In this document: positions 16,476 to 51,072 of the stretch, piece after piece
Position numbering within the stretch: position 1 is the stretch's first letter
Layout: each line of letters begins with the position of its first letter
From: Haplodiscus bocki
Lineage: Eukaryota
Direction of reading: 5' to 3'
Length of the DNA: 64,000 nt
Assembly: GCA_965655095.1 (NCBI GenBank)
Contig: OZ296655.1
Location: forward strand, 39,494,001 to 39,558,000
Translations under genes and position numbers: made by a program
The notes under the pieces: generated by a model
What the model saw: only the letters and a program-made list of their open reading frames with translations
Told to the model about the DNA's origin: nothing
The model's database searches: none

Positions 16476-16529
16476 ATTTTGGAGATGTTTGTGGTCGGGT
16501 GGATTTTCATTCGTACGGTTGGGCCATTC

Positions 16530-20131: not shown

Positions 20132-20220
20132 AAAAAAGAAAATGAGCTAAAAGCAAAAAAGAACGAAATATTTCAGAGAAACTGAAGTTTTTAGCAAGTA
20201 ATCACGTGAGGTCATTAAAA

Positions 20221-25164: not shown

Positions 25165-26409
25165 GTAAGGTTGTGGTGTTAAGTTTTCTCCAAAGTGATT
25201 GATGCTCCTATCTGTTTTAGCGTATTTAATGAAGTATTTATTCAATATTATTTGATGTGTGAGCACGAACCGATAGTCTTATCTGCCATTATTATTCTGT
25301 TAACCGTTATTATTCTATTAATTTTATATCTATTAACTGAGAAAAATTGTCTGTGAGAAGCAGACCAAGCTAATTCAAGTTTTTGCCAGACAGTAAATTT
25401 CTTCGATTTCTTGAACTAAAAGTCAGGAGCTACGAGACAGACATCCTTCTCAGTTGAACGGTGAGAATCATAGAGTTAGGCATATACTTCCCAGAAGAAC
25501 CCCACCGCCTCCAGAATTGAATCTCCCTTTTATTGATTTTGGAGTTATATTTTTTTGTAGATCTCGGCCCGTTCCCCGTCTCGTGAACAGTGGTACTACG
25601 GTTTAATCGAGTTGGAAGTTAAATTCCTAAAAATTCTACAATTAGCTTAGTCAAAAAAGAGAAAGAGCCCATTTCACGTAAACAGACTGATAATTAGAAA
25701 AAAAACAGGAATCAATTTCGAAAATTTCCCAAAAGATTTTGAATTATTCAACATCCACTCGGAAATAAATTCAATTGCTTCTCATCTACCCAAAAGTGAA
25801 AGAAAGTAAACAGAGACGTTCAACCGCGGGGTAAGGAAAATCAATGGAATGCCTGACATCCACATCCGAGAGTTACCAAAAAGTAATCATGGAGAGCCAA
25901 TTGTACTCGCTCCAAGTTTCACACTCCTTCCGTTCTCCCGCTTATGCGTCATTCATTGCTGTGAAGTGTCCACTAAGAAGTGAAGAAAAAACAAAAAAAA
26001 CTAAGTGACCCATAAAAATGGTACACTTCGACGTTATGTTAAAACATAACATCGCGAGCAAAATGAGCAACAAAACGTACCCTTTTTAATGGGCCATTTG
26101 TTAGAAGCAATAGTACTTTATCTTTGCGTTTTATAAAGTGCTATTTTTCAAAATATTGTTCTGAGAAAGAGTAATGTCCGAGCAGGTCATAATATCAACG
26201 ATTCGAGAGAGACGATGCGGCAGATACTTGTGTCTAGTTGTCTTCTTTTGGGCAACCGCGCGATTGACAGCTGGTCTTGCAATTTCAAAAGTGTAAATAT
26301 CCTTATCACATTTCAGTATCAAATGATTTTCAGGATCACTGATTTTTTTGTTTTTTTCCTTATCTCAATTTGTACTCTTTTAATGTTGTGATTTTTGATC
26401 AGGTGCTTT

Positions 26410-26788
26410 TTTTTGTTCAGAAGGAGCTTACCTCTTACATCAGTGTTTTACAGTTGGATACTCCCATTAGCGTGGAATATAACGGTGTTGAGACTCCCAA
26501 ACATGCCACCTGACCAATCATAGATGACAAGGCATGAAAACATTAAAATTAATAAACATTATTTTTTTGAATGTTTTTCATGATTTTATATGTTACCTTC
26601 TTTTTGTTCAGAAGGAGCTTACCTCTTACATCAGTGTTTTACAGTTGGATACTCCCATTAGCGTGGAATATAACGGTGTTGAGACTCCCAAACATGCCAC
26701 CTGACCAATCATAGATGACAAGGCATGAAAACATTAAAATTAATAAACATTATTTTTTTGAATGTTTTTCATGATTTTATATGTTACC
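26410..26788. repeat. Exact tandem duplication, period 191 bp
   Basis: 26410-26597 repeats identically at 26601-26788. Confidence 0.95.
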
Positions 26789-28278: not shown

Positions 28279-29589
28279 GTACGTTTGATTATTTGTCTGT
28301 CAACGCCTTTAGGTTTTTTATCTTTTCTGAGTATTCGTCACAATGTGTTTCCCGTTTCCTACTCATAGTCGACGCCTTATAATTAAGTAAAACTTACCGA
28401 TTATTACAGTGACAAGTTTTTTTCACTGTATATTCGATGAAAATGAAAAGTTGATTTCGTGCTCTCTCAAAGGAAGAGTGGTCTTTAAAAAGGCCACTTA
28501 CTACTCCTACCAAGTACAACCAGTACCGAAAATCACGTTTTTAAATACATAATTTCGAAATTTTGGCCCGAAATGTTTCTTGATACACATTTTTCTTACA
28601 CTTCATTTTTTTGCATTGGCGTGTAACATTAGTGACTGAAAATTTTCATGCCGTAAAGGTCGTATCAAAGAGTCCACCTATATTAAGTTTTCGCCACTGG
28701 GTGACGCAGTTTTTTGGAGAAAAAATGTGATTTTACCCATTTTTTGGTCGAGAAAGTCATACACAATGGAACCAGTTTTGAGAAATTCGAAGGTTCCAAA
28801 GCTGTTTTTGACAGACTTTTGATTGCAAAGATACTTGCAAAGAAATCAAAACTTTGATTATTTTTATGACTACTTTTTCAGACTACTTTTTGCAATCAAA
28901 AACTAAAATTTGGGCTCGTCCGATATGCACGGTGACACTTTTTCACATCGAAACACGTCATAAATTGTCTGGAACACGTTTTGCCAAGTTGTCCGTTTTC
29001 GCCAGTGTAATTGTGAGCAAAGTTTGCTGAAAACGCCATTTCCAGCCGCATCTTTACCAATTTTGAATTCACTGATATGAAAAAAAATTCAGAACATCGA
29101 ATTAAGGTGGAGAAATGTACTTTTTAAAATCAGACGTTCAGTGCTGAAAAAATCCAAGTGTTTCCAATATTCCTGAAATCTCAAATCTTTACGTCCCCCT
29201 CTTAAATTATTTGGAGGAAAATCATACTATGAGGACTTCTTTAAACCTTTGGAAACTCAAAATTGAGCTTGCGAGACTTGCAGCATGACTAGTTTTGACA
29301 CCAAAAAACGCTAGAAAACGTGACGTACGCGTTGTTGCAATTTTCACTGTTTTCTCCAGTGTTACAGTCACTAAAATTTGCTTAAAATGATATTATTGAC
29401 CAAAATTTTTTTCACCTACCAATCTAAACTTTTTGCTTCGAGTTCACTGACTAACTGGAATTCCATTTCTTTTGAGAAATCGCAGCGTCTGTGTAGAAAG
29501 AAATCATGCTTTTGTACTTTTCATGACCGAAAGTACGTAAACTTTTACAATTGTACCCGAAAATTATCGTGGGTACTACAGGTGTAATT

Positions 29590-32479
29590 AATTGTTTACT
29601 ATTGTTCTCACTAGCTAAAATCGCTGAGCAGTGTGTGCGACCATACGTCTTTTTTATCGTTTAAGAAAGTCTCAGAAGCTCACATTAGTGTTAGCTTTGT
29701 ATATTTGCCTTGCTAAACCGCGCGAACAAAATTGCGTAATTTCAACTAGCAAGGATTTGGTAAGCACAGAAAAAGTACAGAATGAGAGATGAACTATTTG
29801 ATGAACATACGAAAAAGGCAGTCAATCTAATAAATGCAAAGGTTCAAAAGATAATATAAAAATGCGGATGGGTGATACTATTAGGGCAGAGATTTGAGAA
29901 ATCGAATCAAAAACACTTCAACAACTGTCCGCCAAAGTCTATCCAATCAAGTCTGTAAGATATAATATCACATCCGAATAAACTGCAAAATATTCAAAAA
30001 CTTCTGCATATTATCAACTGTAATATAAAACAACCAAGTTATCCTCCAATTCGCAGAAACAAATCTTTCCTTTGTATGTTTATCCCGAAATTGAAGATAT
30101 CAACAGATTTTTTGCCAGTATCACGAATTCGGAACAAGCTAATTTATCACAAAGTCCTGAATTTTCTGAAATTTGTTTGAGAAATCTGGAATTCAAGGCA
30201 TCGCAACAATTGATAATACAAACACAAGCCTTTATATTAAATCAAAAATGTACCTAACTTTTGAATTACTCGCATGGATTAGGAAACAAAAATCGATAAA
30301 AATGATTCACAAATCTTTCCAAATGATGGAAATAAATATCAGATTTAGAGAACATGTTGAGGTATTGTTTTTTGACTACTTCGCTTTTGGCTAGCACCAC
30401 CAATATTACATTAGTTGTTTCTAACTCGGTTTCTGCCTTTCTGTTTCAATTCAGTTTTACTCTTATGTTTTATGTAATCAGTTTAGCTATGATTTTGGTA
30501 ACATACCATAAAAGCAGCAAACCTAGTCATTTTTTTTTGAATCCCTGTAGTGCAGGCCGTGACATAAGTCAAACGGTGTTTTAGAACGGGATATCACTTT
30601 TCATCTACAACTTTGCTGGCATGCTAAAGCAGTCGACCAAGTCAACTTTCTAAAGGTCCCCATTTTTTCAAGCGTTAAGGTATTTTAGCTTCTTCCAAAT
30701 GATTCAGTACTTGCGTGACAAAGTAATTGGTCGAAGGATCTTAGTTCTTCTTTTGTCCCATACCGTGACGTAGTTTTTGGTTTCATTGGAGGGATTCAAA
30801 CGGTTTTAGTTTTTTAGTTTTCAACTAAGACTAAGTTTCATTCGTTTTGAACGGTCACTGAGCTACTCTTCCTACTTTCGTTTTTTCTCAAACGCGGTAT
30901 TTCAGTCGCGAACTTGTTTGAGAGGCCTCTTTTCATAGGTTTCAAAGGACCAGTAAAGTGATAACTCACTGGGTTTTAAATGCAAAAATCAGTGAAGAAT
31001 TTCTAGCGAATTTTGCTCCACTCTAAATGAAAAAAAACTCACTGGTACCATCATTCAAATTGAAGAATTCGGTTGAAGTTTGGGTGACGATTAGTCGTGA
31101 AGATAGGATTTTTGCTCGTTGAGAAGTAATGAGGAGAAGATTCAAATAAAAAAGGTAAAATATTGGCGAGGAGGTCAGAAAGAGATCTGCCCTGTAAAAA
31201 AAGCAGGTGAATTGTAGCAAGCGAACGATTATAATGGATGTGCACTGGATTTTCATAACCGTTTAGTCAAGTGTCCATGCAATTTGATGTGAGACCCATT
31301 AAAATCATTTGGCGAGGAAATTGGGAGAAGGAAGAGCTTGGTTCTGGAGATGAAGAGTTTGCAGTTAAGACAAGATTTGTAATTGTGTCAAAATAAACTC
31401 GTTGAAATGATGAAGAATCTGTCTTGGATTAATTTCATCGACGACGATTTTGCCCTACAAAAATGACGAGGGGAAATTGGAAAAGCTTTTCGCTTCCGGG
31501 AAGCATGCTAGTTAACTTGAGAAAGCGAACGAAGATTATGAACGTGTACAAGGTGTTCACACCCGTTTTATGGCGCCATCGAGTGGTCGTCCCACAGGAG
31601 AGCGCTGCAGAAAACAATATCTTCATTAGGATCAATTAGTTGTTGTGAAGAGTTGAAGAACTGCGGTTTATAGAGTTATGGGGGTTTTGTACCTAAGTCA
31701 TAATTTGCTTTGGAAGAAATTCGATGATGATGACTTTGCGGTGGTGTCTGATTTTGACTCAGAAAAAATTTGAGAACTGAGAGCAAAGAGAAAATGATGT
31801 TTGCGGGTTTAGAAAAGGAGAAGAGAGGAAAAGTAAGAAAGGAGAAGAAAGCAAGTTGTTGACGGTAAGCTAGTTAGTGAAATTATGAACTTTTCCGTCG
31901 TGCCAAATGACTGAAAATGGCATCATTCTGCTTTTTCATGTCACCATCAGCAAAACAGCACATGCCAGGCATGTCAGACCTACTGACGAATAGGCTGAAA
32001 GTCGACTGTGCGCAAAATTGATAATTTATTTTTCATTCATTTTTGTCATCAATTTGTCCAATAATCACTTCAATTTGAAACTGTAGCCATATTGACAAAA
32101 AACATTCATTCGTCAACATTCGGTATCAAGTTCGATCCTCTCCGCCACCATAGAGTCGGAATTTAATTTCTTCTTTTAACCAACTTGGTGGCTTTTCCTG
32201 GGAGCTTTCAATTACAATTCTCGTGCTTTATCTCGCTGATGGTTAACTTGGGTATGGTTAGTAAGTTTTGTCTCCTTCGTAAACTTGGTTAACTTGTAAA
32301 TCAAGTTTTAAAATCAAATAAATAAACCAACTGCACTGATCTTTCCCAGTTTTCATCTAAAATTTGATAAATCATTCGTTTTTTCTTTTAGCCAGAGATC
32401 TCTTTAAGTTAGTTGCAACTTTCTTTTGTAAAAACTAAAAAACTGCAATTTTCTTTAGGGATGAGCGTTTGGCGTGACG
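29590..32479 (-). repeat. Element B 3' LTR
   Basis: Colinear with 48207-51072 (ATTGTTTACTATTGTTCTC.CTAGCTA at both 29591 and 48207; TCGATGATGATGACTTTGCGG at both ~31721 and ~50307); roughly 75% identity by eye. Confidence 0.9.
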
Positions 32480-32499
32480 CTATAACTCACCTCGATAGA

Positions 32500-33769
32500 A
32501 GAAAATGAAAACTGATTGGAGGGCTTTCAGGAAAAGGAGGAAATGGAGGTTTTTTGCCAGACGATTTCTGCACAATAGGGTCAGAAAAGGTTACTTCGAC
32601 TTAACAAACATCATTCACAATGTAGTCATCAGTTTCGCTGAAATATTTATAGAGTGGTATGTTTTCGTAAATGGCGACAGCAAAAAGCGCATCGTTTTTG
32701 AGGGAAAATGTTGGTCCTCTGAAGGGGGGCTCTCGTGTAGACTGAATCGTTTGCGTCCACGTTTTGTGTGCGTCTATCTGGTCCCTGATAATGAGATGGA
32801 CAACCTTGGGAAATGGCCCTCTTAAGGGGCCGTCATATTTTCCAGGGAAAATAGCTAAGGTGAGGGTTGCAAATTGGCCGGCTGTTGTATCAATTCCATA
32901 AGGGTGAAATGGGATGATCAAATTATACCCAGAGGGATGGGTGTGAAAAACTGGACTCCAGTAACCAAAAAAATTATCATCAATAGATTTAGGTTGGAGG
33001 TGAGTTGGTTTCGCTGAATCGAAGACAAATCTCACTGAGGTTTGTCTCCGCCATAAGATAGTATTCGGGAAACCAGCTTCCCGTTGACGAACCTTGTCAT
33101 ACGAAAAGGAGTAATTACTCTGTATGCCTGAGAGTAGGGACTGCCGACGCAAAACATCAACTCTTAATTGCTTCTGGAGGGCAATGAATTTGGAGAGTAG
33201 GTCTGGAAGTGCTGTTGACGGAAAGATTTGAGGATTTTAAGAAGATTGGCATGGACTAGAAAAGGAAAGCAAGGCAGACAATGTAGACAATTCGGAATTG
33301 CCTATTAGTATAGGTCAAGAAACGGATGCTCGGGGAAGCTCATGGATTTCAAGTACTGAAGGGCTCGCCACTGTGCCTTCACTTGGTGGGTCATTGGGTA
33401 GAGGTTTTGGATGGGTTCCAGCGTTCTGATTCGCAAGCAGGTTTTGTGTAAATCTGATATCTTTCGGAATTTGGAGAATTACAAGCTGTAAAGTCTGCCG
33501 TTCCAGCCATTTGGATTTAAGATCCAGATGAAAGTATGCAACTTTGAGCTGTACCGAAGGAAGATACTGTACCTGTTTGATGTGAGCTAATGGGAACTTC
33601 TGTATCAAAGCGGTAGAAGCTGCATTGACGATTCGGAGTATGTCCAAAGTTGGTTCAACTGGGTGTTCAAGGATTGAATTTGTTCTTCAAGTTGCGGAGA
33701 ACAGGAGCTAAGAGAAGCAGATGCCAAAGTATTCTTTGCTGGGGTTTCGAGTTTTTCTGAAGAATCCAT
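32500..33769 (-). pseudogene. TRAF-like accessory ORF: coiled coil + TRAF-C/MATH domain, no RING or zinc fingers
   Basis: ILWR..YWSPVFHTHPSGYNLII.FHPYG....GQFATLTLAIFPGKYDGPLRGPFPKVVHLIIRDQ..PFRGP..YIVND matches the TRAF-C consensus FIWK..SPAFYTxxxGYKMCLRxYxNGxG.GTHLSLF.VMxGxxDxLLxWPFxxKVTLxLLDQ..FQRP..YVxDD. Candidate ATG at 33769. Confidence 0.85.
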
Positions 33770-34495
33770 TTCCACAGGAGACTGAGGCCGACTAAAATCC
33801 TAAGGCTTGAAGCGTTGCTGCGGACAGAAAGTAAACCAAATGAGTCTTGTCATCGGGTCTGGTGAGCTGTAATAGCTCTTAGGGGCACAACACTTCGTTG
33901 AGAGAGTAAAGAACTGTTTCGTATAGTAAATTCTTGTCGCGTACTATCCCAATATGCAATTTCCCGTGAGAAAAAGTATGGTTTGAGTTTATAAGGCAAA
34001 TGACGATTGAATCGAGCCTTCTTAGTTTCTTGGCCCGACAGGGAAAATGCTCGCGTCGGTGTTGTTTGTGGAGTGCCACTGATTCGGCGTGATGTTGAAA
34101 TTTAGTGTGTCTGGGACAAGAGACAAGAGGTGGAACGTCTCGTCTCCAGGTAATAAATTGTTGGAGTGGCTCGTTTTCAGATTCGGACTATACTTGTGAA
34201 AAAGGGTTGAGATTTTGATGAGTACATTGATGCTGGGAGAAGCTGGCGGTGAATTGGTTAATGATCTCGCTTCAGGGTTAGGTTGTTCGTTGTTTGGTTC
34301 AGGGTCTAAAGGTTTTTGAGAAATGGAATGGGGGACAAAATGAAAAATAGGTGTCGTATTCCGTCCAAAGACGTTGGGGTGAAATGCTCTATTTTTAGAT
34401 CGGGATCTCTGGGCATAGAAATAATTTCGCTGCTGTCCAAAGAGGAATAGACTTAAAAGATTCTAGCTAAAAAGATTCACAACAATAGAAGAACA

Positions 34496-36652
34496 TTAAA
34501 GAGGTGATACAGGAAGGGTAGAAAAAACCAACGCAGCAGGATTACCAACCGGGTAGAGGTACTCTTCTTTTTTCTTATCTTCATCTCGAATTTCAGTAAA
34601 TTCAATACTTACTCTGAGTTGCATGTTTTGAGATTCGGCGGAAGCCAAACCAGTTGCTTGAGGATTATACTTTGAAATCGTAATAAACGTCGTGAAAGTA
34701 TTGTATGAGGTGGTCATTAGGGTCCTACCCAACCCAAGTGAATCACCAGCCATCCTGTTTCTTTCAACTTGCCTTAGTTTCATGACTATGAAGTCTATTC
34801 AGAGCTCTAGTAACGGGAAGACCGTGAATCCAATTCCACAGTGTTCAAGGATGTAAGTAACTGCCCAAAGGTATCCGTAAAGCGTATTTTGAAAAATCAC
34901 GGGGTCATCAATTCCTTAACGTAGAACTTGGTTCTTGGGGTGTAATAGTGGAGCCCGTCAGACCCCTCCTGATGAGTAGACAACACAACGAGGTTCTATG
35001 AGAACTTCTTTAAAGCAGTTCTGGAATCCGTTATAATAAGGATGTTGTCCCAGAAACCGCGAAGTTACCTTCTTGTAAATATGGAACCTCTTGAGCATTG
35101 AGGGACTGTGCAGTCATAGGTGTGAGATTTTAGGCCCAAAAACAGCGGATTTATCCTGATGTACTATACCAGTAGTGGGAGTGTACCAAGAGTCTTCCTG
35201 GTTTGGGTCAAGTTGAAAAAGATTCTTGATTCTATCGGAACAGTTCTGCGTAACAGCTTCAAAATAAGTTTGTCGTGTGATAGGATCAACATATTGAATT
35301 TCACTTTCGTAAAGTATGGGCATTCTGTCATAACACTGACTCAACGTAACAAACGGTGAGTGAAAAACCGGGCAATGATTCAGCCAGGCTAGTCTGCCGT
35401 CTGTTTCAGGAACATTGGTCGTTTCCTGTGAGAAGACAGCTCGCTATTTGAGTACTTTCAAAGGCCAGCATTAAGTTACTGAGGATTTGTGAACGTTCTT
35501 GTTCCCATTGCTTTTGTAGCAACTGTATTTCAGTTGCCTGAACAAGAAGTGAACTTTAGAAGAAATAGTTTATCTTCAATTCAAGGTGCTTTTCGTAATC
35601 TACGTTCAAATAGTTGTCTCGGTCTTCTGTTTGCTGGAACTGCGTTCCCTCAAGCTTGGGGTTATCTGCATACAGTTGGCCCAAGTCAGTTTTTCCCTGT
35701 CGCCCCAGGTTTTGAGGAACAATAAATTTAGTCGCACCATTCTTCTCTCCACCGAGATTTTTCCACAGCTCAATATGGAAACCCTCACTTTGTCGCATTA
35801 TGGAGGGAGAGAGAGATTCATAGCTTGTTGGGTAAGAAAGTGTGCGTTTCTCACAAAGTTTTTGAGGGTTGTTCATAATACGGAACACAAATTTCGATGT
35901 AGAGTCGGTTCCTCTAAAAAGCTCGTACTTTTTGTTTTGTTTAACCAAGTTGACGTCTTCTGTTCGAAAAATTGAGAATAAATATTTGTCCGGGTAATCC
36001 CAGATGTGAGCATAAGGTTCAAGTAAAGTTGTTCCGCAACCAAGCTCTTCTAAAGCAAAGTAGTAATAATCCAATACCGGATAGCACTTTTTCCGTTTCC
36101 GATCGTGACTTTTGGAGTTTTTTTTCATAAGTGGATAAAGAAGGTATCTTGAGAAATGACGCTTTTTGTTTAAAAGTGGCTTCTGTTGGAGCCGGTTGTG
36201 TCACCGGAAAGTTTAACGACAGGGGTCTTCTTGGTATACCATTCAAAACCAATCCAGAGGCCTTGTGAGTTGATGCTGGCTACTTTTGCAAGAGTTCGGC
36301 AGTGTTCTGGCAAAATAATCAAATCACTGGTTATTCCGGCAAAAGTGTGGTCAATGCTGCTTTGATCAAGGTGTCCACAAGGCCTTTTTTTGTTGGCGCT
36401 GGATGTCGCGTCTAGCTTTTCTCTGACATATTTGGTGTAAAGCGTAAGTTAGGCTTTCCTAACTTCTACTGTTTCTGGTGTAACATAACACGATCCTACT
36501 TGGTTTACAGCATGAAGACAATTTTCTGTTTTTGAGCTGCAATCAAAAAGAGATACTTTAAGAAGTGGAGCAACCTGATCTGAATTTGTATTTATATTGT
36601 GAGTTACCTTGGTACAAAACACGAGTAAATGAAGGAGGAGTAGCTTCATCAC
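34496..36652 (-). pseudogene. env: env-like class III glycoprotein (chuvirus/herpes gB-like), frameshifted
   Basis: Signal peptide MMKLLLLHLLVFC; SLFDC..VNQVGSC; GCGTTLLEPYAHIWDYPD; CYDRMPILYESEIQYVDPITRQTY..QNC; C-terminal hydrophobic helices near 34900-34680. The pattern resembles chuvirus-like glycoproteins (YDC..SLxxVxxC; CYxELPV..FxxPxTR..C). Confidence 0.7.
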
Positions 36653-36925
36653 TAACTACTCAGTGGAGATTTCTATCAATTTTTTACAGAAATAGCTATC
36701 AAAAACGCCCTAAATTAAAACCGGCGTTCTCCTGCACTCGTACATTGTGAAGGCAGAAAATTTGAACTAGAAACTAGGTTACTGCGAGAACGACGTTGAA
36801 ACTTTTATAAAGGGCGTTGGACTAAAATCAGTTCCGGTGAAAGGGGATGGCGGTCAAAAACCAAAACGTCAAAATGAAAAGGTGCCGAGTAAAAAAAGCT
36901 GACCTCTACCAGTTGGATTAGACGG

Positions 36926-37402
36926 TTAGAGTAAATGCAAAATGGGCATTCTTTTTAGCCCCTTCTTGAGTAGGTGTTGCTGCTCAGGCTGAAACTTCTT
37001 CAGACTACGTGACCGTCTGATAAATTTCTTGTTCGTCCCAGTCCAAAATTGAATTTTAAATGTCATAAAGATAAACGACAGCGTGTAGGATGTTGAGTTC
37101 TGACACCCGTGAATTGCACCAAAGTTAGTGTCCATAAAAATTAGAAGATCGTCCAAGCTTTGATTTTCCCCTTTGTCCAGTATTTTGGAGATCTCCAGCG
37201 TCACAATGGAGTTTGCGAACTATTCTGTTTTGATTGTTGGGTGGATCAGTATTACATCGAATAGATTCTCAGCAACCCCTATTCTGACGTGAAAGGTGCT
37301 TGCGTCAGGAATACAAAACTGGTAGATTTTGAAAGTTTTCCTTGTAGTAAAATTGTGCCCACTTGCAGTTGCGATCAGCTCACAAAAATTCTTTGTTGTC
37401 AC
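36926..37402 (-). pseudogene. Orphan ORF between the integrase-side orphan and env
   Basis: Two adjacent minus-strand ORF fragments (37220-37402, 36926-37204) in the element's sense direction; no recognisable domain. Confidence 0.35.
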
Positions 37403-38053
37403 CAGGGCGTCGTAAAATGGCTTTAACGAGGGTCACTCGAGGTTTTCCGTTCCGCCTAATTATATGGTCCGGTGGAGGGTTATGAGTATTGATTTGATTA
37501 AAGGATGGTGACTAAATTTTGGGGGCACACAAAGGTTTTATTTTTGTCATTTCTGACGAATTGAGTTTTCTTTATAAAACTCTCGTTCTTGTGTCCAGTG
37601 TTAATGCCACGATGACTTGGAGTTTTTTGTCGATTCGAAGCCAGATGAGTGTCATCTAAACGATGAGCTCCCGTTTCCAAAAATAATGTTGCTAGTTATG
37701 TAGTTATCTGCAGAAAGTAGACTGCGTAGGTGATAGTAATTAAGAGACTCGGGATAGCACTTGTAATTTTATTCCACTCCCGTTTCTGTTTTCGTGTGAA
37801 TAAGAATTGTTTTTCAATCGGATTTTGTTTCATTTGTTTTCACTCTCGGCAAATCTCCGTCAATTTCCACGTATTTTGAATCATAGCAGGGCTGAGAATC
37901 AAATCATCGGGCTATTTCATTTCTAGGACGATAGGGTAAGTTGTATGTAATATGTAAAATAAATAGTCTTAATTAGAACTAGGTTCTAGGATTAAATATG
38001 CTAGAGAATACATAGGAAACAAAAATGTTGCTGCAATGTCTTCTCCTGGAGAT

Positions 38054-39431
38054 TCATCTTTCTGTTCCATTACTTCCGTTGTAGCAGGGTCTTCCGGAAG
38101 GAAAGGGTAAAAATAGGAAGCCTATCGGTAGGGTTGGCCTTGAGTAGGAAAGTTGCAGGGTGAGTGGGCTGGATTCGGCCTGTACATGCGAATCCAATCG
38201 CGGGTTTGTAGCTATCAAATAGGAAGATTGTTGCAAGCAAGTTGCCAAGGGGTTGGTATAGAAACAATGGGGTTGTCAACTCTAAAACTAATTGTTGTGT
38301 ATTATAGGATGCAACAACCCGGCCCGTCCTTCCGTAATTCAGTGCTCCAAAATTTTCAAAAGAAACCGGAGCATCCGAGTGGTTCGGACATTTCTTTTGT
38401 AAAAATTTCAAAAAAAATGATCCTCGAGTTGGGGAGGAAATCCCGTTGGGAATTGGGTTAAAGTTGTCTTCGAAAGTCGAATATGAGGAGTCCTTCTCAG
38501 AAGAGGTTAATAATAATGGTGGCCTGGGTTACGGCTGCGATAATAATTTTGTTGGAGATGGAGATTATGTCTTGTACTCTCGTGTACAATCTTCAAGGGT
38601 TGAGGACGTTTCTAAGGGAGAAGACGAATTGTGCGGGGTTCCTAGATCCACCAATTCTAGAAAGAGCTAATTTGGTCTAGAGAGCCTTTTATGGCCGAAA
38701 TTTGCAAAAAATGGTACTCAGCGCCCCAAAAAAGATGGCAGTTGAATTTCTGGGTGCTGCAATTACCGGCTTTAGTATTAACAACGCACAGGAAGGACGG
38801 GATTTCCTTCGGTTGTTTGGGTGCTGGGCTGCGGCTGAATTTTGCTCTGGTGTTCATGACTTGGATGCCCGGGGCGATTTCTTGGACATCGAGTAGAGCT
38901 TCGGGGAATCTCTTGTTGGTGTGGGGTTCTCTCACGCCAATTTCAAAAACTTCAGTCTTTGTGCCACTGTCTGGTAGGTGGATATTGGAACTGCACAAAC
39001 ATCTTTTTTGAGAAGTTCAGAGAAATAGCTTGAATCATCGAAACAGAAAGCAGATGTATTGGAATCAGAAAATAGGGGTCATCATCTGAGCTTTCATAGA
39101 CAATATAGTCGAAAATATGTGAAAGGAAGCAGGTAGGGAGACAGGAGAGAAGTTCATCCAGCAAAGAACCAAGGGAATTGAGAGGGTGGTCACAAAGAAG
39201 TTCGTAAGGACCGACTAAGGCCTTGGCGCCGAAACAAATCTGAATATTGGATTTGCGGTTGACGTCAGGTTTGAAAATTGTAAATGAGATCGAAGTAGCA
39301 CAAACTTGAACCCTGTCAGTGGCATAGTTCCAAATTGTTTTAGTGAGCAGTGCACATTAAAAGTTCAAACCATGCCCATCAGGAGGGACAGTCCAAATAC
39401 AGTTGGGAAAAATCTTTCTGCATGGAGGCAT
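38054..39431 (-). pseudogene. Long orphan ORF downstream of integrase (~450 codons, disrupted)
   Basis: MPPCRKIFPNCIWTVPPDGHGLNF*CALLTKTIWNYATDRV..LDELLSCLPTCFLSHIFDY.. continues through successive frameshifted fragments to ~38054. Confidence 0.45.
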
Positions 39432-39913
39432 TAAAACTTTAAAAAAAACAGAAAGGTAGCAAGAAGACTGGTGAACATTTTGAATATTGATTAGCGAGAT
39501 TAGTGAGAAAAACGCAGAAAGAATTGCTGAAACAAAACACTGATTGATCGTAATCAAAAATAAGTTAAAGAAGTGCTAAGTTTTAGTATTTTTGGCCTTG
39601 GCGTGTACATGTGCGTAGTACCGGTTCTGGGTCGGGGTGATCGGGATCAGAACGGTTATGTTTGGACTCTTTATTCCAAAAGTTACGAAGTTTTCGGATG
39701 AATTATTGGATGGGGCTCAGTGGATGATCAGGCGAGAAAGGTGCAGACATCTGTCGTGATGTGGAAGGAACAGCAGGCAATGGCCGAAAAGTAGTATAGG
39801 CAGTAGTCGATCGTTGAAGGCGAGAGAAGGTCTGACGAGCATTGACTCCTGAACCACTATTAGTTTTTATGGTTCTTTGTGTTGGAAGAACAGTTGAAGT
39901 TGAAGGTACGGCG

Positions 39914-41284
39914 CTATAGGGAAAAGCACCGATTCAGTTGCGGTTGGTTCGTCTCTGGTGTATATTTTTTTGATACGTTGTTCCATGAGTCGTTCATAAA
40001 AACCATTGTCACGTATTTTTGACAGGATGGCTTCTTCAATCGTCGCCGGCAGGAATAATTAAGTTGGTATCTAGTGTTCGTAAAACATTTAGTAATCAGG
40101 AATGGTCCCAGACAGCGTTGTCGGAGTTTTTGACTTTTGGATAGATCTTGCCGATGATTCTCGTATGAAACTTTTTGTCCAACGTTGAGATGATGGCCCA
40201 ATGTGCAGCGGTTAGGATAAGCGTGCAATCTAGCTGTCTGCTCCCAACTTTTCTTGAATGTAGCAGAATAGAGTAGCTTGCTATTTCGTTCTGTTTCTAG
40301 AAGGGTCTGAGATAACTGTGGACGGAGAAGGTTGTCTAAGAAACGATTCTTCATAATGTTATCGATGTGAGAGTGTGCAGGTGGGTCTTTGCAAAACTCC
40401 CAACAGCAAAATTTCTGCTTATTCCGGTAAAGGTCACGCTTTAGAAACATGGGTTTGTGTGGTTTCGCTCCAAAAACTACCTCATAAGTTCTTTTCCCAG
40501 TTGTGTTTTTCACACTAGTAATATGTTCAAAAACAAATACGGGTGCTGAGGAAGGCCAGTTAGTTCCAGCATTACTCAGAATTTTCGCCAGTATCTAGTG
40601 ATAAGTTCTGTGTCTCTACCTTGCCATTTGTCCGTGAGTGATGGACTGTTTGTGGTCTTAACGTAATTCCAAACTCTTCTGTCCAGTAAATGAAATCGGT
40701 ACTGATGAAAGCGGTGCCCCAATCGTGCATAGTAGACTGGTTTTCCCGAACGACTTTGTTCAATTTTCGATTGCAACAGTCCTGACTTGGGCACTAATAT
40801 TGGTAGCCGGGTGAACCATAAGAATTCCTGGGAAGACATGAATTACTATCAAGCAGTGAAGATAACCTTTAGTTGGGGGGTGGAGAGGCCCATCATGGTC
40901 AATATGCAACTTGCAAAACGTTATTGTGTCGTTCTGCCATTCTTCCAGTGGGAATTCCTATTTGTGTTTTGCTTTAGTTTTGTTATTTTAGCAAGTAATG
41001 GAATCAGCTGTGAGAGCGCAAAACCAGTCAGACCTTCCAGGCCAATCAAAAATTAATTAGCAGGTCCTTGTTTCTTCCACGTAGCCGCCCATTTGGTTGT
41101 AATGCCCAAAGCTGAAAAAAGTTAGATGTAGAGATAGGGGGAGAAATTGTCTAAAACTTTGGTCGTCCCGTTTATCGGGATGCGCAGTGTCGCAGAGTAT
41201 CTGTCCTTCAGTTTCAATCAGGGGTCTCTTCAGTTCTGTAGTATAAAATCCCTTTAGATTGTTCGGTTTTTGTTGATTTTGCAC
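39914..41284 (-). pseudogene. Element B integrase with GPY/F-like C-terminal motif
   Basis: GHYNQMGGYV (HHCC region), MHDWGTAFISTDF..WTEEFGITLRP..TNGKVETQN, TGKRTYEVVFG, LGPFLITK..TRYQL. Confidence 0.85.
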
Positions 41285-42049
41285 TTGGCGAAGTTTTTCA
41301 TCAAGGAACGTTCAGTGCCAATTACAGGGTCATTGGTCTCCTCAGCAGGGATTGTGGAGATATTCAGGTCTACCAATTTAGCAACTTCATCTAATTTGGC
41401 AATGAGTGCTTCCGTAATCAGGTGAGCAGCCTCGGTGTATGCGAGTGGCTTTTCAAAGGAGGAGGCGTAATGTTGCCTAGCAAGGAGTCGTGAGCTGTTT
41501 TTGCTAAATACAAGCAATAGTGATCAATGTTAGTGTCTATTCTGCATTTGTGGGCATGTTCCTGTTCCTCCTCATCATCTTCCGTCGGATCAGTTTGTAC
41601 AGAAACTGCGTTTAAGGCCACGCAGTCTGCTTTTTCGTTTTCCAAAGAATTGATGGAATTGTAAGTTGCGTCATAACTGTTCTTTAGAATCAGGTAATGG
41701 GATAAAGGAAAGCACAGGAGGAGGAATTGGTTGTTGGTTTTGCTCATGTGAAACCAATTTACAGCACCTTTGGCCAAAAAGTTGGGAATTCATTGCTGAT
41801 ACTGTTTAATGTATAGCTTTTGCTATCGTTTTGGAGTCCCAGAATTTCTTCTTCTCAGCCTTGACAGCGATGTAAAGGATAAAAATCATTGAAGGACTCG
41901 GTCGGGTTGTGCTCGTGTTGATTTTTGTATGTTACTGAATTTCCACGTGCTTCAAAAAAGTCAATATCCCTAGGTATCTTCTTGTGTTGCAAGTGGTGTT
42001 TTTGATTTTACTCTAGTGTTAAATTTCTACTCAAAATGTCAAGAAAGGC

Positions 42050-43450
42050 AAGATTAGAGCCAGAGGTGCAAAAGCAATTCAGTTTTTGGAGCTTGGTGTT
42101 GATAACCCGAATTCTAGAAAGCCGATGGGATAGTTTTCCGTTGCGCCCTTATAAGTAAAAATTGGTTCTGTGATGACAATTTAGACAAGTGGGGAATGGA
42201 AGTCCAAAGATATGAACTTCATTCGTATGCAGCGCAAAGACAATTCCGCACAATTCGCGGTAGATTCTAGACATTTTGCTTACTTTCATCGGAAACTCAA
42301 GAATTGGAGGATTTGATACTTTTTGCTTCTGGAAAACGTTGTAATAAGATACAACCTGTACCAACACTAGAAGATTCGACGAGAATATGGAACCAGTAAT
42401 CAGCGGACGGGACAGCAGGGAAGGTGTTTTCACTGATTCTGTCTTTGATCAACTTGAAACGATCCTCGTGCTCATTGTTCTATTAGGAGGACGTCGATCT
42501 TTTTTTCAAGTCTTGGATTTGTTGACTGTCTACATGACTTTTCTTGATAAAGCAGCTGTAGAAGCCAAGGCATCACAGGAGTTCCATGACATCTGGTTTA
42601 CACTCTTGTAATTTCCGATTCTTGAGTTCTTTAACTCGTTTTGCGATAGGTTGAACTCCGTCGGGAGGAATACCTAGTCCAATAAAGTTATTTTTTAGAA
42701 GAAATAATGTTTTATCGGGCCAGCTTTTAGCCCAGTTTTACGTAAAAATGTATAATACTCATTTATAATGCCGAACATCTGTTTTTAATTTTGCGCTTGC
42801 AACATTCTATCATCAATGTGTGTAGAAACCTGCTTCTTTTCGATAACGGGGTCGAATTGGATTGTCATCAGGTGGTTTAAAAAAGTTAGGGAGTTCACAT
42901 AGCCCATAGAATCCTCGAGTATATTATATTGCCGTCCACCAGAATTAAAACCAAAAAATTTTGAGTTTTAGAACTCAGAAGTACATGATGATAAGCACAA
43001 GAGAAATCACTGACAGAGAAGACTCTACCATTAACACGGGTCAAAATCATTTGAATTGGTTCAAGCGGCCCGGAGTAATTAATGGGGGCCGTTACCGAGT
43101 TGAGGTACCAGGCCTCAAAAAAGAGTTTCCCAAAGTCATTTTAGGCCTCAAAATATTGGGGTTAACAAAAAGTGATCCCATTCCGTCATTGTCGTCCATC
43201 TGTCGAATGTTATCAGCTTCTTTAAATTGTTTGAAAAAAAATTTCTATCAAATGCCAGCGTAATTTACTAGGTAATTGCCTCTTCAATTCAACGTTAGGT
43301 TTATAGGTAACATGGAAATTTTGCTTGGCGTTACCCACCTCAACTTTATATTGGGAAAAAACATCTTGGGAATCAAGCAGTACCTAAATAAGGAGCGTCA
43401 TCTCTTCATCTGTGATGTGTGAAAACTGAAAATCAAATTCTCTGATGAAG
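42050..43450 (-). pseudogene. pol: Element B RT + RNase H
   Basis: FNSGGRQY.., THIDD (YIDD) at ~42825-42811, and RNase H YRELCGIVFALHTNEVHIFGLPFPTCLNCHH. Confidence 0.85.
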
Positions 43451-43689
43451 TTTACTAACTCTTTCGATTGATAAAGTAAATAATGTTTTATATGCCGATT
43501 GTTGAGGTCCCTCTCAGGGAAGATACGTAGATGTTGGTCACTTGTTGGTTGTCAGAACTCCTAATTTTTCCTAAAATCCGTCTCGACGTCCTTGTCACCA
43601 AAAGAAATTTCTGCACTATATCGTTCGATTGCAACCGCAGCATAAAACTTGACGTCGCCATCTGAAGTCATCGCGTGAACTCTATGGCT

Positions 43690-44110
43690 CTCAAGATTGT
43701 ACACGACAACTTGAATTTCTGACTGACCAAAGACGTCGAGTAATAACTTCACAACTTCCTGCCAATTCACATGATCTAACTCACAAGCGATTGTAGGTAT
43801 GGCAATCGTTGACACACCATACATAGTTGCAAGAGACTTCTTAGCCTCGAGCGATATAGAAGCGTTGGCAGATCAGGTTTGTCAGAGATTTTTTTTTTGT
43901 TACAAGATTGCAGATATAATGTCTGCTAGTGCAGTCCCAGAAAAGAATCACTTGCCCTTTCGGAAGCTCTGCTTTTTTACAAGTTAGGCGAAGACCAAGA
44001 AGACAGTGAGATAGGATGTGAGCAAAACACTTACTCAATCGCGCAGAGGCCGAGGTACAATGTCCAATAGCGTTCGGCTGCTGGATAAAGCAGTTTTCAT
44101 TTCCGTGAAC
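43690..44110 (-). pseudogene. OARD1/TARG1-type macrodomain in element B pol, between protease and RT
   Basis: QPNAIGHCTSASARLSKCFA..YICNLVTKKK..YGVSTIAIPTIACELDHVNWQEVVKLLLDVFGQSEIQVVVY, vs TARG1 [41 protein letters not shown]. Confidence 0.88.
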
Positions 44111-44936
44111 GATTTGTAGGAATTCATCGCTGGATTGGGTAGCAATTGCTCAATGTTGAAGGAAACACTCAATATATCGTCCATCAAGGATTTACTACAA
44201 TTTATGCCTCCGAATTTCTCTTAAATTTTCTAAATTTTTCAGCCACTTTCTTCATTGTGTGAGTAGTAGTGAAATGCACTTCAAGAAACTTTTCATTCAT
44301 TTTCTCAATTGCTTCAATTGTAGAAAGAACATCTTCGAGTAAAATTTCAAGTGTATATCTGACCACTTTTTTTTCCGGTCGAAAATAATTGGGGACCATT
44401 TCGATACTTCTGTCCACTTAGTTTTTTCCTGTAACCGAATTTTTTAATGAGATTTTAACAATCCTAGTTTTACAGAGCGTTTAGGTCATCTTTTTTGACA
44501 GAACGAATAGCTTTTCTATCTTTTTTTGACTGTTGGGCCAATATGTTTTTAACTAAGCCAATAGACGGAAAAAAATTCATAATTAATTTCTACCTCATTG
44601 TTTGTTTCACTAGCCTTAGTAAGTATGTTTTTAGTTTCCTTCAATTGAATTTATGTATTTTTTTCGTACTTTTTTTGGATCTATGTACATAAAGCTAATA
44701 ATAGTCTTCTTTCCAGGTTTTCCTACAAACACTTTTATATCAACATAAAGTATAGTAAATTGCTGATGGCATTTGTTAACTCATAAGGACTCCTATTCTG
44801 ATATTTAGGTTCTTCGCGGTCGGAAGCATAAAAAAAACTCCAATTCTTTCTTTGGGAAGTGTACTCAGGTGGTTTTTGTTGTTTTCTATTAGTGTTTGGA
44901 GGCTTTCTTCCTATTGCGTGCGTAAGGTATTTTTAA

Positions 44937-45540
44937 TTAACGGGCCAGTTGAAACAACTTGGCGGTTGGGTTGAAATGTATAACCACGTGGGAAGTGAGT
45001 TTGAGAATCTTCGGGAGAATATTTCCAACATCGAGCACTTTTGACGTCAAAATACATAGTGTAGGGAATCCAAATGTTTCAGAATTGAGATAAATGGGGA
45101 GAACATTTGTTTTGGTGGAAACTTTTATAACAAAATGACCTAAGGGTTTCCGTGTTCTATTCCTGGCGAACCAGAGTGGATCCCAGTCACTGTTTATGAC
45201 AAAAATCCGGGGTAAATTTCCGGGGTAAATCCAAAAAAGGTAAATTTTGATTTTCAATTCAATAATCCAGACCGTTGGAGGGAACACAGAAGATCCATTT
45301 GGGTCATAACTGAGAGTTACGCTTCCAGAGCCGGCCACTGGAACGGCTTGTCACGACTAGGTTTTAGTTTTTTCAGTACTTTTCTGAGTTGTTATTGGGT
45401 GGTGTAGCTGGAAGACTTCTGAGAAAGTACGAAATTTATTAAGTGAGCAGGAAACTCCAGTGTCCAACATAATCTCAACTTCCAGTCAACTATCTTTTCG
45501 AACGTCTCAGGTGGCAAAATAAAAGATGTTAAAACTGAGT
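44937..45540 (-). pseudogene. Element B aspartic protease
   Basis: VEIMLDTGVSCSLNKFRTF at ~45480-45425. Confidence 0.8.
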
Positions 45541-45943
45541 CTGGAGTTGCTGGGTTGATCGGAATTACAGTTCGGACACCCTAGTAGTTTGAAGGACAAA
45601 GGTCCCAAAACGCGTTGATGCAATCGTCCTTTGTGATAAGGCGAAATATGTTAGCTAGTGGCTGATCTTTGGATTTTGGGAATTGTTGTTCAGAAAGGGT
45701 GAAAATGATCGTAGGTTGATTATCCGGTCGTGGAGAAACCGGGTTTTTACATTGGTTGGGCTCTGGTTTGACGAAATGAATTGTTTCGCGGAAAATCTTG
45801 TCTCTGGTCAGATGGAGATCGAAGGGAATTTGCACTACTTCGCCAGTTTCCTTTAGAATTGTTAAAGCTCCCATGTCTGGGCCAATCCTCATTGATCCTG
45901 TTAGTAAATAGGTCCTTTCGTTATTCCGAAAGTCGTCTCGGGC

Positions 45944-47152
45944 TCAGGTCATTAGGTTTGTAGGAAAGATATGCTCTAGATGAGTCTCGACGATTTTTAC
46001 ATTGTCAAGAACCATGGTTTGCTCCTCGTTTTTTGTTATAGGTTTTGGTAAGGGTGACTTTTTTTCGGAAGTTCTTCCAGTTTCTAAATTTTTCATTTCA
46101 TTATCTCGTATTTTCTTTCTACACCAGCTCGGGGTTTGGGGTGTGTCCACTCGTGGGGCAATAATTGAAAATCGAGTACCGTTCCATCTTCCTCTTTGGT
46201 TTGGATCAACTGGGAAATATTTTCCACAGCGTTGACTCGACAATCTTGTAAATCTATTCGAAGATCTTTCCTTTTTTTGCACAATTTGCCAAATTCAGCT
46301 TTAGTCTAATCTTCAACAATCAGAAAGTTTAAATATACTTGAAAAGATACATCCTTCTGAAATATACTGGTTGGAAAGTCATTCCAGGTGGCATTTGGGT
46401 GCTCCATTAGGTATTGCTGGGCCTTAGGTTGTAGAAATCTATGTCTCAATCCTCTAAAACTGTAATCCATGTACCTGTGTCTCCTTTGTCTTCCTTGTGT
46501 AGCTCGTTCTGCGTTTTGTTGAGCATACTCATTTCCATTCTTTTAATCAGGCCAGCCTTTGTCCAGTGTCTTTTTGATTCTGTAGAGAAAGTTCCGTACT
46601 TCTTCTCCATCTCCTCAAATACAATGTTCTATTTCTAGTCGGTGGCGGAATTGACTTCGTCGATCTGAGAACCTAGTAAAAAAGTTCGTTTGGCTATCGT
46701 CCCCTGGGATGGAAGCTTCGAGGTTGTTTCCATTTCAATTCAGCGGCGGCGGAGCATCTGAGTAAAGAGGAGATGAGGGCTTTTTTCAAAAATTTTATTT
46801 GGCTATGGCGTCGGAATTTGCTGGAGAATCTCCGAAGGCGAAGTTATGTTTTCGTTCTAAAAATTGTTTTGAATGATTCAGCATGTTGATCGGGACCAGT
46901 GCCAGAGAACTTGTCTAAGTCGCGGCCAGGGTAGGCTAGGTGAGTTACAGCCACAATGTTAGAGTCAAATTTGAAGCTTAGACATTCTGTTACCTCTTCC
47001 CGGATTGCAAGTTGATGAGCGTTTGAATGAGGCTGAAGAAAAGCTTTGTTTAAGTTAGGTGCGTCACATACAGATCTCAGCAAAAGGTGATTAGCATCTA
47101 TGTCTAGGTTTTTACCAATTTGTGAATCCAGATGTACTGTAAACCGAATCAT
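45944..47152 (-). pseudogene. gag: Element B gag
   Basis: LDKFSGTGPDQHAESF capsid-like start; degenerate knuckle ..TPSWCRKKIRD; position upstream of PR. Confidence 0.65.
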
Positions 47153-48174: not shown

Positions 48175-51072
48175 GTAGTTTCTAGCGGAAACTGAGGGTT
48201 CTTTTGATTGTTTACTATTGTTCTCGCTAGCTATTACCACTGAGCACTATATGTGCGGCTATACGTGTGCTATTTTGTGTAACAAAGTCTCAGAAGCATA
48301 CACTATTGTTATTTTTGTTTATTTACCTTGCTAAACTGCGCGAGGAAAATTGCGTAAGTTCCACTAGCAAGGATTTGGTGAGAACGGAAAAATACAGAAA
48401 GAGAGATAAACTATTTGATGAATATATGAAAAAAGCAGTCAACCTAGTAAATGCAAAGGTGCAAAACGTAAATTAAATTTGTGGATGGGTGAAATTGATA
48501 GGGAGAGATTTGAGAAATCGAATCTATTGACCTTCAACAGCTGTCCTCCAAAGTCTATCGTTCAAAATTGTAAAACAAAAGATCAAATGCGAATCTACTG
48601 CCAAATTTTCAAAAGCTTCTGTCTATTGTCAACTGTATTGTAGAACAACCAAGTTATCCTCCAAATTGAAGAAACAAAATAAAACCCACTGTATGTTTGT
48701 CCCGAAATAGAAGTTTTCAACAAAATATTCGCCTGTATCACGAAATCAGAAGTATTTAATTTATCGCAATGTCCAGAGTTATCAAAATTTTTTTGAGAAA
48801 GCTGAAATTTAAGGCAGCGCAGCATTTGATAAAACAAACATGAGGATTTAGATTAAATACCAAACTTAGCAAAAACTCGAATTACTTGCATAGGTTGAGT
48901 AACAGTAATCGTTACTATTGATTTACAATTCTTTCCAAAAAATGGCAATTTTTCAACAGATTCAAAGACTGGGTTGAGGTAATGTTTTATGTCTTTTTCC
49001 TTTTTGGCTAGGAGTAAAAGTTACATTCGTTGTGTCTAGCTCGGCTGTTGCCTTTTTGTTTCTTCTAGTTTTATTTTGAAGTTATATTCAATCAGTTCAG
49101 CTAAGATTGTCAATTTCCGTAAACCCCTACAGTTCAGGCCGTGACATAAGTCAAACGATGTTATGGCACGTGATATCACTTTTTATCCACGAGTTTGGTA
49201 ACATGTATAGAACAGTCGACCAAGTCAAGTCTCTTAGTGTCCTGTATCTGTCAAGCGTTAGTCCATTGACGAGGCGACTCGATGTACTTTAGTTTTCTTT
49301 TATGACTCAATACTTGAATAACAAAGTAACCGGGTGAAAGATCTTAGTTCCCCTTTTGTCCGTTACCATGACATAGTCTTCGGCTTTCTTGGAGAGTTTT
49401 AAATTGTTTTAGTTTTTAGTTTTTTTCCAAGAATCAATTTCATTCGTATTAAACGGTTATTGAGGTATTTTTCCTACTTTTTTTCTCAAACGCGGTACTT
49501 CTCCTGCAAATTTGTTTGGATGGGTTTATTTTTAAAAAATTCGGATAACCAGTAGAATGATAACTCACTGAGTTTCAAATGCAATAATCTGTTAGGAATT
49601 TTCAGCGAAGTTTACTCTACTAGTAATTAAAAGGAAAGACTCACTGATACCTTCATTGAAATTGAAGAATTGGGTTGAAGCTTGGGTGTTGATCGTTTTT
49701 ACTCGTTGAGAAGTAATGAGATGAAGGTTTAGGTAAAAGAGTTAAAGAAATGAGGAGGAAGTCGAAAAACGTTTCGCCTTTCGGAAATGAGCAGGTGAAT
49801 TGTAGCGAGCGAGTAAACATTATGGACGTGCATTAGGTTTTTTTACCCGTTTGATCAGGTATCGCTGCATTTTGGAATGAGAGCCAATAGGATCGCTTGG
49901 CGAGGAAATTGGGAAGAAGAAAATTGGTTCTGGAGATGAAATGTTTGCAGCTGAGATTTTTTCCTGATTGTCTCAAAATGTTTTTGTGGAAATAAGGAGG
50001 TTATCTGTCTTGGAAAATTTTCATCGACGAGTTTTTTGCTCTAGAAACATGATGAGGGGAAGTTGAAGAGATTTTCGCCTCGGGGAAGTATGGTAGTTAA
50101 CTGTAGAAAACGAATGAATATTGCGAAAGAGTACGGGGTATTTTCATTCGTTTTTTAGCACCATTGAGTAATCATTCAATAAGAGAGCGCCGCAGATAGC
50201 AATGTTTACAATAAGATCAATTAGTAGTTATAAAAAAGTGAAGACTGGCAAATTTTTTGAATTATTGAGGTTTTGCAGCTAGGTCATACTCATAATTGGA
50301 AGAAGTTCGATGATGATGACTTTGCGGCTAAGTCAACGTTTGACTCAAAAAAAGACTAAGAAGTGAGAGCAAAGAAAGGAGGACATTTTTAGGTTTTTAA
50401 AAGGAGAAGAAAGGAGAGGTAAGAGGGGAGAAGAGAAAAAGTTGTTTACGGTAAGCGAGTGAGTGAAATTATAATCGTTTCCGTTGTGCCAACTGACTGA
50501 CAAATCGCATCATGCTGATTTTTCATGCCACCATCATCATAACAGCGCATTTCGAGCATGTTAGACCGACTGACGGATAGGCTGATAGTAGGTTGTAGGC
50601 AAAATCGATATTTTAATTTTTATTTAGTTTTGTCATCAATTTTTGCAATTCCAATCGAGTAATCCCCTCAATTTCAACAGTCGCCATAATGAGGACAAAT
50701 AAATGTTCGTCAACATTTGGTATCAATTTTTTTCTTCTCCGCGGCCAAACAGTCCGATTTTTTCTTCTTCTCCATTTAACCAAGTGGACTTTTGCTGGGG
50801 GCCTTCATTTACAAATCGCTTGGTTTATCTCAATGATGGTGAAGTTTGGTTTGGTTATCATATTTTACTTCCTTCGTAATCTAGGTTAGCTCGTAAATCA
50901 AGTTTTAAAATCAAACAGACCAACTGCACTGATCTTTCTTTGTTCTTTTCTAAATTTTGTTAAATCTTGGGTTCATTTTGGGCTGAATTTTTTTGATGTT
51001 CGTTTCAATTTTCCGCTTTTACAAAACTATAAAACTGCGGCTTTGCGTAAGGTTTGAGCGATAGTCGTAACG
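48175..51072 (-). repeat. Element B 5' LTR
   Basis: Direct repeat of 29590-32479; similarity ends at CGTAACG (51072) and CGTGACG (32479). Confidence 0.9.

Follow-up and report, generated by a model that had tools for sequence, protein, structure and literature searches.

The 64,000-nucleotide stretch of Haplodiscus bocki DNA analysed here (the window) contains a 21.5 kb Ty3/gypsy element that runs from 51077 to 29565. In this order it carries gag, pol, env, ORF4 and an intronless gene for a coiled coil and a MATH (TRAF-C) domain, the last lying on the minus strand between env and the 3' LTR. The features of the element, in window coordinates, are:

29565..32484, minus strand: 3' LTR, 73.6% identical to the 5' LTR
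~32485-32496: short purine tract before the 3' LTR
32526..33853, minus strand: TRAF-derived accessory gene (72% identical to a natural intact copy in a DNA alignment; protein alignment)
32580..33077, minus strand: MATH / TRAF-C domain (Pfam E 5.6e-9; fold of an intact copy)
33078..33209, minus strand: coiled coil 2, the TRAF-N trimerisation helix (helix 3-46 in the structure model)
33435..33697, minus strand: coiled coil 1, with an FPL..QYLH motif common to the host RING-less paralogues (sequence comparison)
33821..33853, minus strand: position of the PAM2-like motif at the N-terminus, which is damaged in the window copy and intact in most others
33850..34466, minus strand: ORF4, ~205 aa, with a splice-acceptor-like site directly before it at 34467 and a stop that shares bases with the TRAF ATG (ATGA)
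34496..36700 (upper end approximate), minus strand: env, a Monjiviricetes (chuvirus/mononegavirus-type) fusion glycoprotein, broken
36700..39588, no strand assigned: pol-env interval, occupied in intact copies by one antisense ORF and a number of small sense ORFs
39589..45614, minus strand: pol (PR, Macro-like, RT, RNase H, integrase), broken (Pfam in an intact copy, alignment map)
45587..46957, minus strand: gag, broken (Pfam in an intact copy, alignment map)
~48165-48180: degenerate primer-binding site, adjoining the 5' LTR
48181..51077, minus strand: 5' LTR, ~2.9 kb (repeat pairing and alignment to natural copies)

The LTRs were detected as a repeat pair at 29588-32479 and 48204-51072 (73.6% identity), and the target-site duplication ATTT is found at 51078-51081 and 29561-29564. 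The primer site of the family begins with TGG, directly after the 5' LTR. In an intact copy Pfam gives the pol domain order PR-RT-RH-IN with gag upstream, and the named matches of pol are gypsy-like at 24-30% identity; the placement in Ty3/gypsy (Metaviridae) rests on the LTRs, the target-site duplication, the gag-pol order and these named matches. Env matches PF24664 both in a window fragment (35114-35443, E 1.3e-5) and in an intact copy (E 7e-37).

The stretch 32601-33236 on the minus strand matches the Pfam family TRAF-mep_MATH (E 5.6e-9), as does the TRAF ORF of a naturally intact copy (E 1.6e-18), in whose protein Pfam finds no RING or zinc finger. An earlier note, made from the letters of the window, had described an intronless MATH gene with a coiled coil upstream, in the element's sense direction, in the slot between env and the 3' LTR and devoid of RING and zinc fingers, and had proposed a profile search for MATH; the description is borne out and the search is positive. 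The extent it gave, 32500..33769, places the MATH domain correctly and misses the end point, the true start lying 84 nt upstream at 33853. The order env, gene, 3' LTR likewise stands, except that ORF4 intervenes and that the polypurine tract is only a short purine tract. The window copy of the gene is broken: four stops interrupt its frame (33802, 33317, 33239 and 32603), small indels lie near 33847, 33836, 33713/33708 and 33618, and the first codons are damaged; the counterpart proteins of intact copies have about 405-458 aa. The window element is an old, dead insertion.

Several further features were seen in the window and in related copies. An insertion of ~580 bp (44186-44764) interrupts the window pol. 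Between protease and RT there is a weak Macro-domain match (E 0.005, under the cut-off; L044:3-4907, corresponding to window pol 39589-45614), a possible second counter-defence module. Families A, B and C share a conserved antisense frame of ~165-265 aa in the interval from pol to env (8 of the 9 gaps listed; for example L035:4250-4885 and L043:5884-6441, both minus strand), and its homologue in copy E5 lies inside the LTR instead. Small sense ORFs (113-160 aa) recur across families before gag and before env (L043:7652-7999, L093:6157-7290, L035:5744-6124, L044:5922-6278); the leader ORF is triplicated in one family B copy, and a similar ORF precedes env in a sister lineage. Neither the antisense frame nor the other pol-env interval ORFs of intact copies have a Pfam match; ORF4 and the remaining small ORFs have none of note, and ORF4 has no usable match in the Atlas. 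The genome plan resembles that of a complex retrovirus. LTRs start with TA in families A and C and with TG in the single family B copy examined, and all end with CA (L031-L048, L093-L107). Elsewhere in the window lie a second, unrelated decayed gypsy element (9556-21339; LTRs of ~830 bp, 85% identical), whose pol is 24-38% identical to that of the TRAF-bearing element; a non-LTR retrotransposon on the plus strand (58931-63488) with a C1/PHD-like ORF1, endonuclease, RT, RNase H and an (AAC)n tail; a satellite-like array at 1-7800 with a ~385-bp monomer and higher-order repeats of ~1150 and ~1970 bp; and, outside the TRAF-bearing element, a near-perfect 191-bp tandem duplication (26406-26788).

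Element families and selection on the TRAF ORF

Searching the 1.5 Gb genome with the window TRAF fragment brought up 3,587 candidates, with 150 scored matches among them, and two relatives at about 38% identity used as queries brought in two further families. At least 342 related TRAF loci are present, at least 150 in family A, 97 in B and 95 in C, with an overall identity across families of 38-41%. The TRAF frame is intact, at 405-458 aa, in 47 of the 71 loci examined. All 12 full copies, from neighbourhoods chosen by their TRAF matches, share the layout LTR-gag-pol-env-ORF4-TRAF-LTR; they are 19.5-22.2 kb long with LTR pairs 95.5-99.4% identical, and 9 of the 10 copies examined for it have a legible 4-bp target duplication, the tenth running into an assembly gap. 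The sister lineage was picked via pol (~50% identity; 33 loci), so that its selection is free of TRAF bias, and in all three copies followed downstream we find env, ORF4 and a TRAF of ~250 aa, a bare coiled coil and MATH domain that has neither the PAM2-like motif nor coiled coil 1. In copy E6 (L046-L048), env is near that of E1 and E2 (dS 0.12-0.16) and TRAF is distant (dS 0.92), a mismatch from which the TRAF cassette appears to have been exchanged by recombination. An Atlas search with the TRAF ORF returned only generic TRAF clusters.

The TRAF ORF is under purifying selection. Pairwise dN/dS is 0.19 overall and 0.09 for MATH in family A (19 unique intact copies), 0.33 in family B (16 young copies) and 0.36 in family C (11 copies), values that are biased downwards in dN since the loci were the best matches to protein queries. 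Shared variants give lower ratios than singletons (0.21 against 0.39 in A, 0.17 against 0.57 in B and 0.35 against 0.65 in C), a difference to be expected when selection works on replicating elements and inserted copies then decay. Between families synonymous sites are saturated, yet TRAF frames are still open. Across six full family A copies dN/dS is 0.10 for coiled coil 2 plus MATH, 0.05 for env and 0.02 for RT, and the between-family identity of aligned columns falls from 90-94% (RT) through 62-76% (env) to 52-55% (coiled coil 2 plus MATH). The ORF is thus conserved, yet the fastest-changing among the large ORFs, which suggests a host-facing accessory gene, as such genes tend to change fastest.

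These data bear on whether the gene does anything for the element. The earlier note had proposed that it is a virus-style accessory gene, to be checked by its presence in other copies and by its dN/dS; the ORF is fixed, multi-copy and selected, with ratios far below 1 in all three families. That it is a neutral passenger can hardly be the case: the window copy is broken and singletons in the young family B approach neutrality (MATH 0.80), but hundreds of copies keep the ORF in a fixed slot, with frames open across saturated synonymous divergence and dN/dS far below 1. A one-off processed pseudogene was rejected along with it, there being neither a poly(A) nor a target duplication of its own. 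In active copies the TRAF ORF is almost certainly a functional accessory gene.

Probable origin from a RING-less host TRAF subfamily

A profile search retrieved proteins that share the MATH signature and the first coiled-coil motif of the element TRAF, and the host genome encodes the same TRAF type at two single-copy, intron-containing loci, C5a and C5b. No gag, pol or env lies within about 20 kb of either. Close to the MATH end an intron divides the host gene, at a position through which the element ORF reads uninterrupted, so capture was likely via spliced RNA. In trees, all element TRAFs group with the two host C5 genes, apart from the canonical TRAFs, which include four other host TRAFs (support 98/97, and 99/97 in a later tree, from which 16 near-duplicate, gappy or decayed rows were dropped). 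The TRAFs of families A-D make up a clade of their own (100/99), as do those of the sister lineage (100/98); a single grouping of all element TRAFs, and with it one capture, is not rejected (p-AU 0.243). Two sequences, P0323 and P0342, are of an element-borne type and not cellular.

The phylogeny against host TRAFs, which the earlier note had called for, hence joins the element proteins to a RING-less host subfamily. Upstream of the two host C5 genes no RING is found within 18-20 kb, only one zinc-finger-like exon, which belongs to C5a and is present in no element; P0362, an apparently spliced relative close to C5b, also has no RING. The RING-less state of the element protein was therefore likely inherited, and the idea that RING loss was the element's own trick finds no support, its closest host-type relatives showing no RING either.

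A transfer in the other direction, with the host C5 genes domesticated from an element TRAF and gaining introns later, would concern the origin only. The best tree does place the sister-lineage TRAFs outside the host genes and families A-D (85/89, unstarred), but C5a keeps the upstream zinc-finger-like exon that the elements are without, the sequences of several host-type relatives in other records break off at the same intron point, and trees holding all element TRAFs together are not rejected by the same p-AU. As long branches meet in the TRAF tree, we keep reverse domestication as a minor and very improbable rival. Separately, decayed copies of the host TRAF exon (L140-L147; for example G000:C3:129.36 Mb, C6:7.79 Mb, C10:61.98 Mb) end at or before the host intron point, and the 6-11 kb examined around them contain neither gag nor pol nor env; two of them occur as inverted pairs, and separate DNA-level mobilisation is likely.

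Expression, the PAM2-like motif and the receptor groove

In families A-C ORF4 has no ATG and, in the five junctions examined, starts right after a pyrimidine-rich AG; it is presumably entered by splicing at this acceptor-like site. Its conserved end is basic. The ORF4 stop overlaps the TRAF start (TGATG, TAATG or ATGA) in 42 of 46 copies, ORF4 being shifted in the remaining four, and in the sister lineage it lies 5 nt before the TRAF start (3/3 copies). To judge from its layout, the junction would match the termination-reinitiation pairs of caliciviruses, influenza B and SART1, in which stop and start are described as overlapping or within 20 nt (PMC10275272). The likeness lies in a UAAUG/AUGA-type overlap at a 3' ORF pair; for the present element, the coupling and any TURBS element upstream would be predictions from sequence.

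The PAM2 consensus has the spacing Leu-x-x-x-Ala-x-x-Phe-x-Pro, and the N-terminal motif of the element protein has the same spacing. Such a start is present in 57 of 74 independently predicted family A-C proteins of at least 395 aa and occurs neither in 22,308 aa elsewhere nor in 103,786 aa of pol. It is kept in 19 of 24 broken copies, its fixed residues vary freely at synonymous sites, and it is among the best-conserved parts of the TRAF ORF across families. Four peptides were scored with the Pfam PAM2 family (PF07145): those of families B and C gave E 0.007 and 0.01 (16.4 and 15.9 bits, against a cut-off of 20), and two from family A gave no match. The motif was gained by families A-C after capture. 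PAM2, in which Leu and Phe are conserved, is described as binding the MLLE domains of PABP and UBR5 (PMC11572963), and the element's PAM2-like tail may bind MLLE in either. The host genome has a UBR5-like MLLE+HECT gene. An MLLE family search of the genome gave only the UBR5-like exon, a search for the PABP family, with 74 of 134 candidates scored, brought up other RRM genes, and a motif-pattern search gave only a tandem-repeat artefact, so that none of the three yielded a host PABP MLLE. Shortly before its MLLE, the UBR5-like gene itself encodes a PAM2-like stretch (L116:2-421), without a Pfam match.

Coiled coil 2 plus MATH of an intact copy folds as a coiled coil and TRAF-C domain with pLDDT 85 when a deeper alignment is used (57 with a shallow one). 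Foldseek relates the element fold to TRAF1, TRAF5 and TRAF3 (E 4e-12 to 6e-12; best PDB matches 5h10 and 5e1t). A glycine in strand beta7, which from TRAF2 and TRAF6 structures we take to be a position of the receptor-docking strand, is present in six host TRAFs, in 13 of 13 outside rows, in 5 of 6 canonical rows and in the sister lineage, but in none of the 73 family A-C proteins, among 120, in which the position could be located. Host-type residues are kept at 0.48 of predicted trimer contacts versus 0.19 of groove positions, and the first-strand Arg/Lys and Tyr/His are partly kept. The beta7 strand is conserved within each family and differs between families, a pattern equally in keeping with a new ligand and with a dead groove. 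A mixed trimer modelled without alignments from two element chains and one host-type chain scores 0.63, against 0.30 for the best control; its runs agree in at least 85% of contacts, with a partner pLDDT of at least 78. In the calibration, which covers no close relatives, 51 of the 78 solved pairs attain the mark set for such models, as do 2 of the 108 mismatched ones. Since TRAF trimers are already solved, so that the score may reflect likeness to them, and since the host-type subunit is a stand-in (P0362, near host C5b), the model shows compatibility only.

The earlier note had proposed a decoy of immune signalling, and its premise of a TRAF-C fold holds; for families A-C simple competition for receptor tails is weakened by the lost beta7 glycine and by a strand that differs between families. 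As a full account, element homotrimers would bind receptor or adaptor tails, out-compete host TRAFs and blunt NF-kB/antiviral signalling. The intact fold and the partly kept first-strand residues speak for such a decoy, as does divergence faster than that of pol or env, which suggests a host-facing role, and it suits best the sister lineage, with its beta7 glycine and bare coiled coil plus MATH. Against it, families A-C, the window's included, have lost that glycine and most host-type groove residues, the donor subfamily itself shows no RING, and the PAM2-like motif is left unexplained; we hold it to be unlikely. We are equally doubtful of a role confined to the element's own RNA, in which a MATH trimer would display three PAM2 motifs to PABP and so aid translation, stability, localisation or packaging, with host TRAF signalling not the target. 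The conservation of the motif at 38-41% overall identity, the apparent coupling of translation to the basic-ended ORF4 and the remodelled groove residues all agree with this, but the retained coiled coil 1 motif and the trimer surface common to host paralogues do not, the sister lineage manages without PAM2, and a host PABP MLLE was not found in the genome searches.

Proposed mode of action and relation to known elements

The reading we prefer, tentatively and at somewhat less than an even chance, is interference with host TRAFs through mixed trimers combined with PAM2 tethering. A TRAF gene would have been captured through mRNA from the RING-less host subfamily, and its product would be made by stop-start reinitiation after ORF4. 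The element protein would enter host TRAF trimers, weaken them through its altered receptor groove and anchor them by its PAM2-like tail to MLLE proteins (PABP or UBR5), so that TRAF stress, death or immune signalling may be damped or rerouted in cells transcribing the element. What inclines us to this choice, short of conviction, is the combination of a kept trimer surface and coiled coil 1 with a remodelled groove and an added docking motif. A receptor-binding-dead TRAF6 is described as dominant-negative over the wild type (PMC3697994). The mechanism cannot be lineage-wide, as the sister lineage keeps the glycine and has neither PAM2 nor coiled coil 1. A related reading, rather unlikely but worth keeping, is that the captured TRAF became a new adaptor, its receptor binding swapped for the PAM2-like tail in the manner of accessory proteins of the Vif/Vpu type. 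It would then bring host TRAF trimers, or new targets held by MATH, to the E3 ligase UBR5 or to RNA granules with PABP, and would do so within a genome of complex retrovirus type that has some six more uncharacterised ORFs.

Among cellular proteins, the nearest likeness to the mixed-trimer reading is to TRAF1 and to dominant-negative TRAFs of truncated or receptor-dead type, which share a coiled coil plus TRAF-C without RING and predicted mixed trimers. TRAF1 is RING-less. The protein described here differs in being element-borne and in having, in families A-C, lost the beta7 glycine and gained the PAM2-like motif. Among viral proteins, ISKNV ORF111L is, according to its published description, likewise a virus-encoded TRAF homologue acting on host signalling, but of a fish DNA virus and not endogenous, and it is reported to bind TRADD and promote apoptosis (PMC3352826). 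On this pattern the element protein would be an agonist that switches on a TRAF-linked survival or death pathway favouring spread. In favour are the caspase-8 apoptosis that ORF111L is described to drive through TRADD and the BIR and BCL2-like domains reported for planarian Burro elements (PMC6431247); however, the element TRAF has neither RING nor zinc fingers, and with hundreds of germline copies a death-inducing product would presumably be costly. We regard an agonist as quite improbable.

The statement in the earlier note that TRAF cargo was undescribed in Metaviridae does not hold. By the published account, planarian Burro/GYPSM1 gypsy elements (for which Jurka 2007 and Grohme 2018 are cited there) carry MATH_TRAF_C together with a mononegavirus-type env, and in a Dugesia tigrina element MATH lies on a separate accessory ORF (PMC6431247). 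The element described here is thus alike in being a gypsy-type LTR element with such an env and MATH_TRAF_C cargo. Burro, as described, exceeds 30 kb and encodes a ~5,000-aa polyprotein in which env is placed in frame after gag and before pol, and its MATH lies inside or upstream of ORF1, with BIR, BCL2-like and ankyrin motifs in addition. The present element, in contrast, is 19.5-22.2 kb long with separate gag, pol and env, has TRAF as its last ORF behind ORF4, bears the PAM2-like tail and has a donor subfamily in the same genome; no Pfam match to BIR, BCL2 or ankyrin was found in it. Compared by published description, it departs from the defining architecture of Burro, and we do not assign it there. 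LTR elements with Jingchuvirales-type glycoproteins (PMC10084718) are alike in env, which here matches Monjiviricetes_fusion PF24664; the paper deals with arthropod EVEs, and its abstract mentions no TRAF cargo.

In the literature searched, with Repbase, subscription papers and supplements outside its scope and possibly describing the family, Burro and ISKNV were the only precedents found for TRAF cargo. The same search found no 3' stop-start-coupled TRAF ORF, PAM2-TRAF fusion or traced donor, and no description of a retrotransposon protein with PAM2. Gypsy elements with TRAF cargo were already known; the PAM2 gain, the stop-start coupling and the traced donor are apparently new.

To our knowledge, LTR retrotransposons seldom carry signalling genes taken from a host, and those known are mostly described as lists of domains. 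Here the donor subfamily, several active families and changes made after capture are found in one genome, which makes the evolution of an accessory gene traceable and testable; the changes visible are motif gain, groove change and cassette exchange. Together with Burro, the case suggests that gypsy elements with env have targeted TRAF signalling more than once in invertebrates, which points to a host defence yet to be defined. The PAM2-TRAF fusion, if true, would connect the TRAF pathway with UBR5 or with the machinery that binds poly(A).
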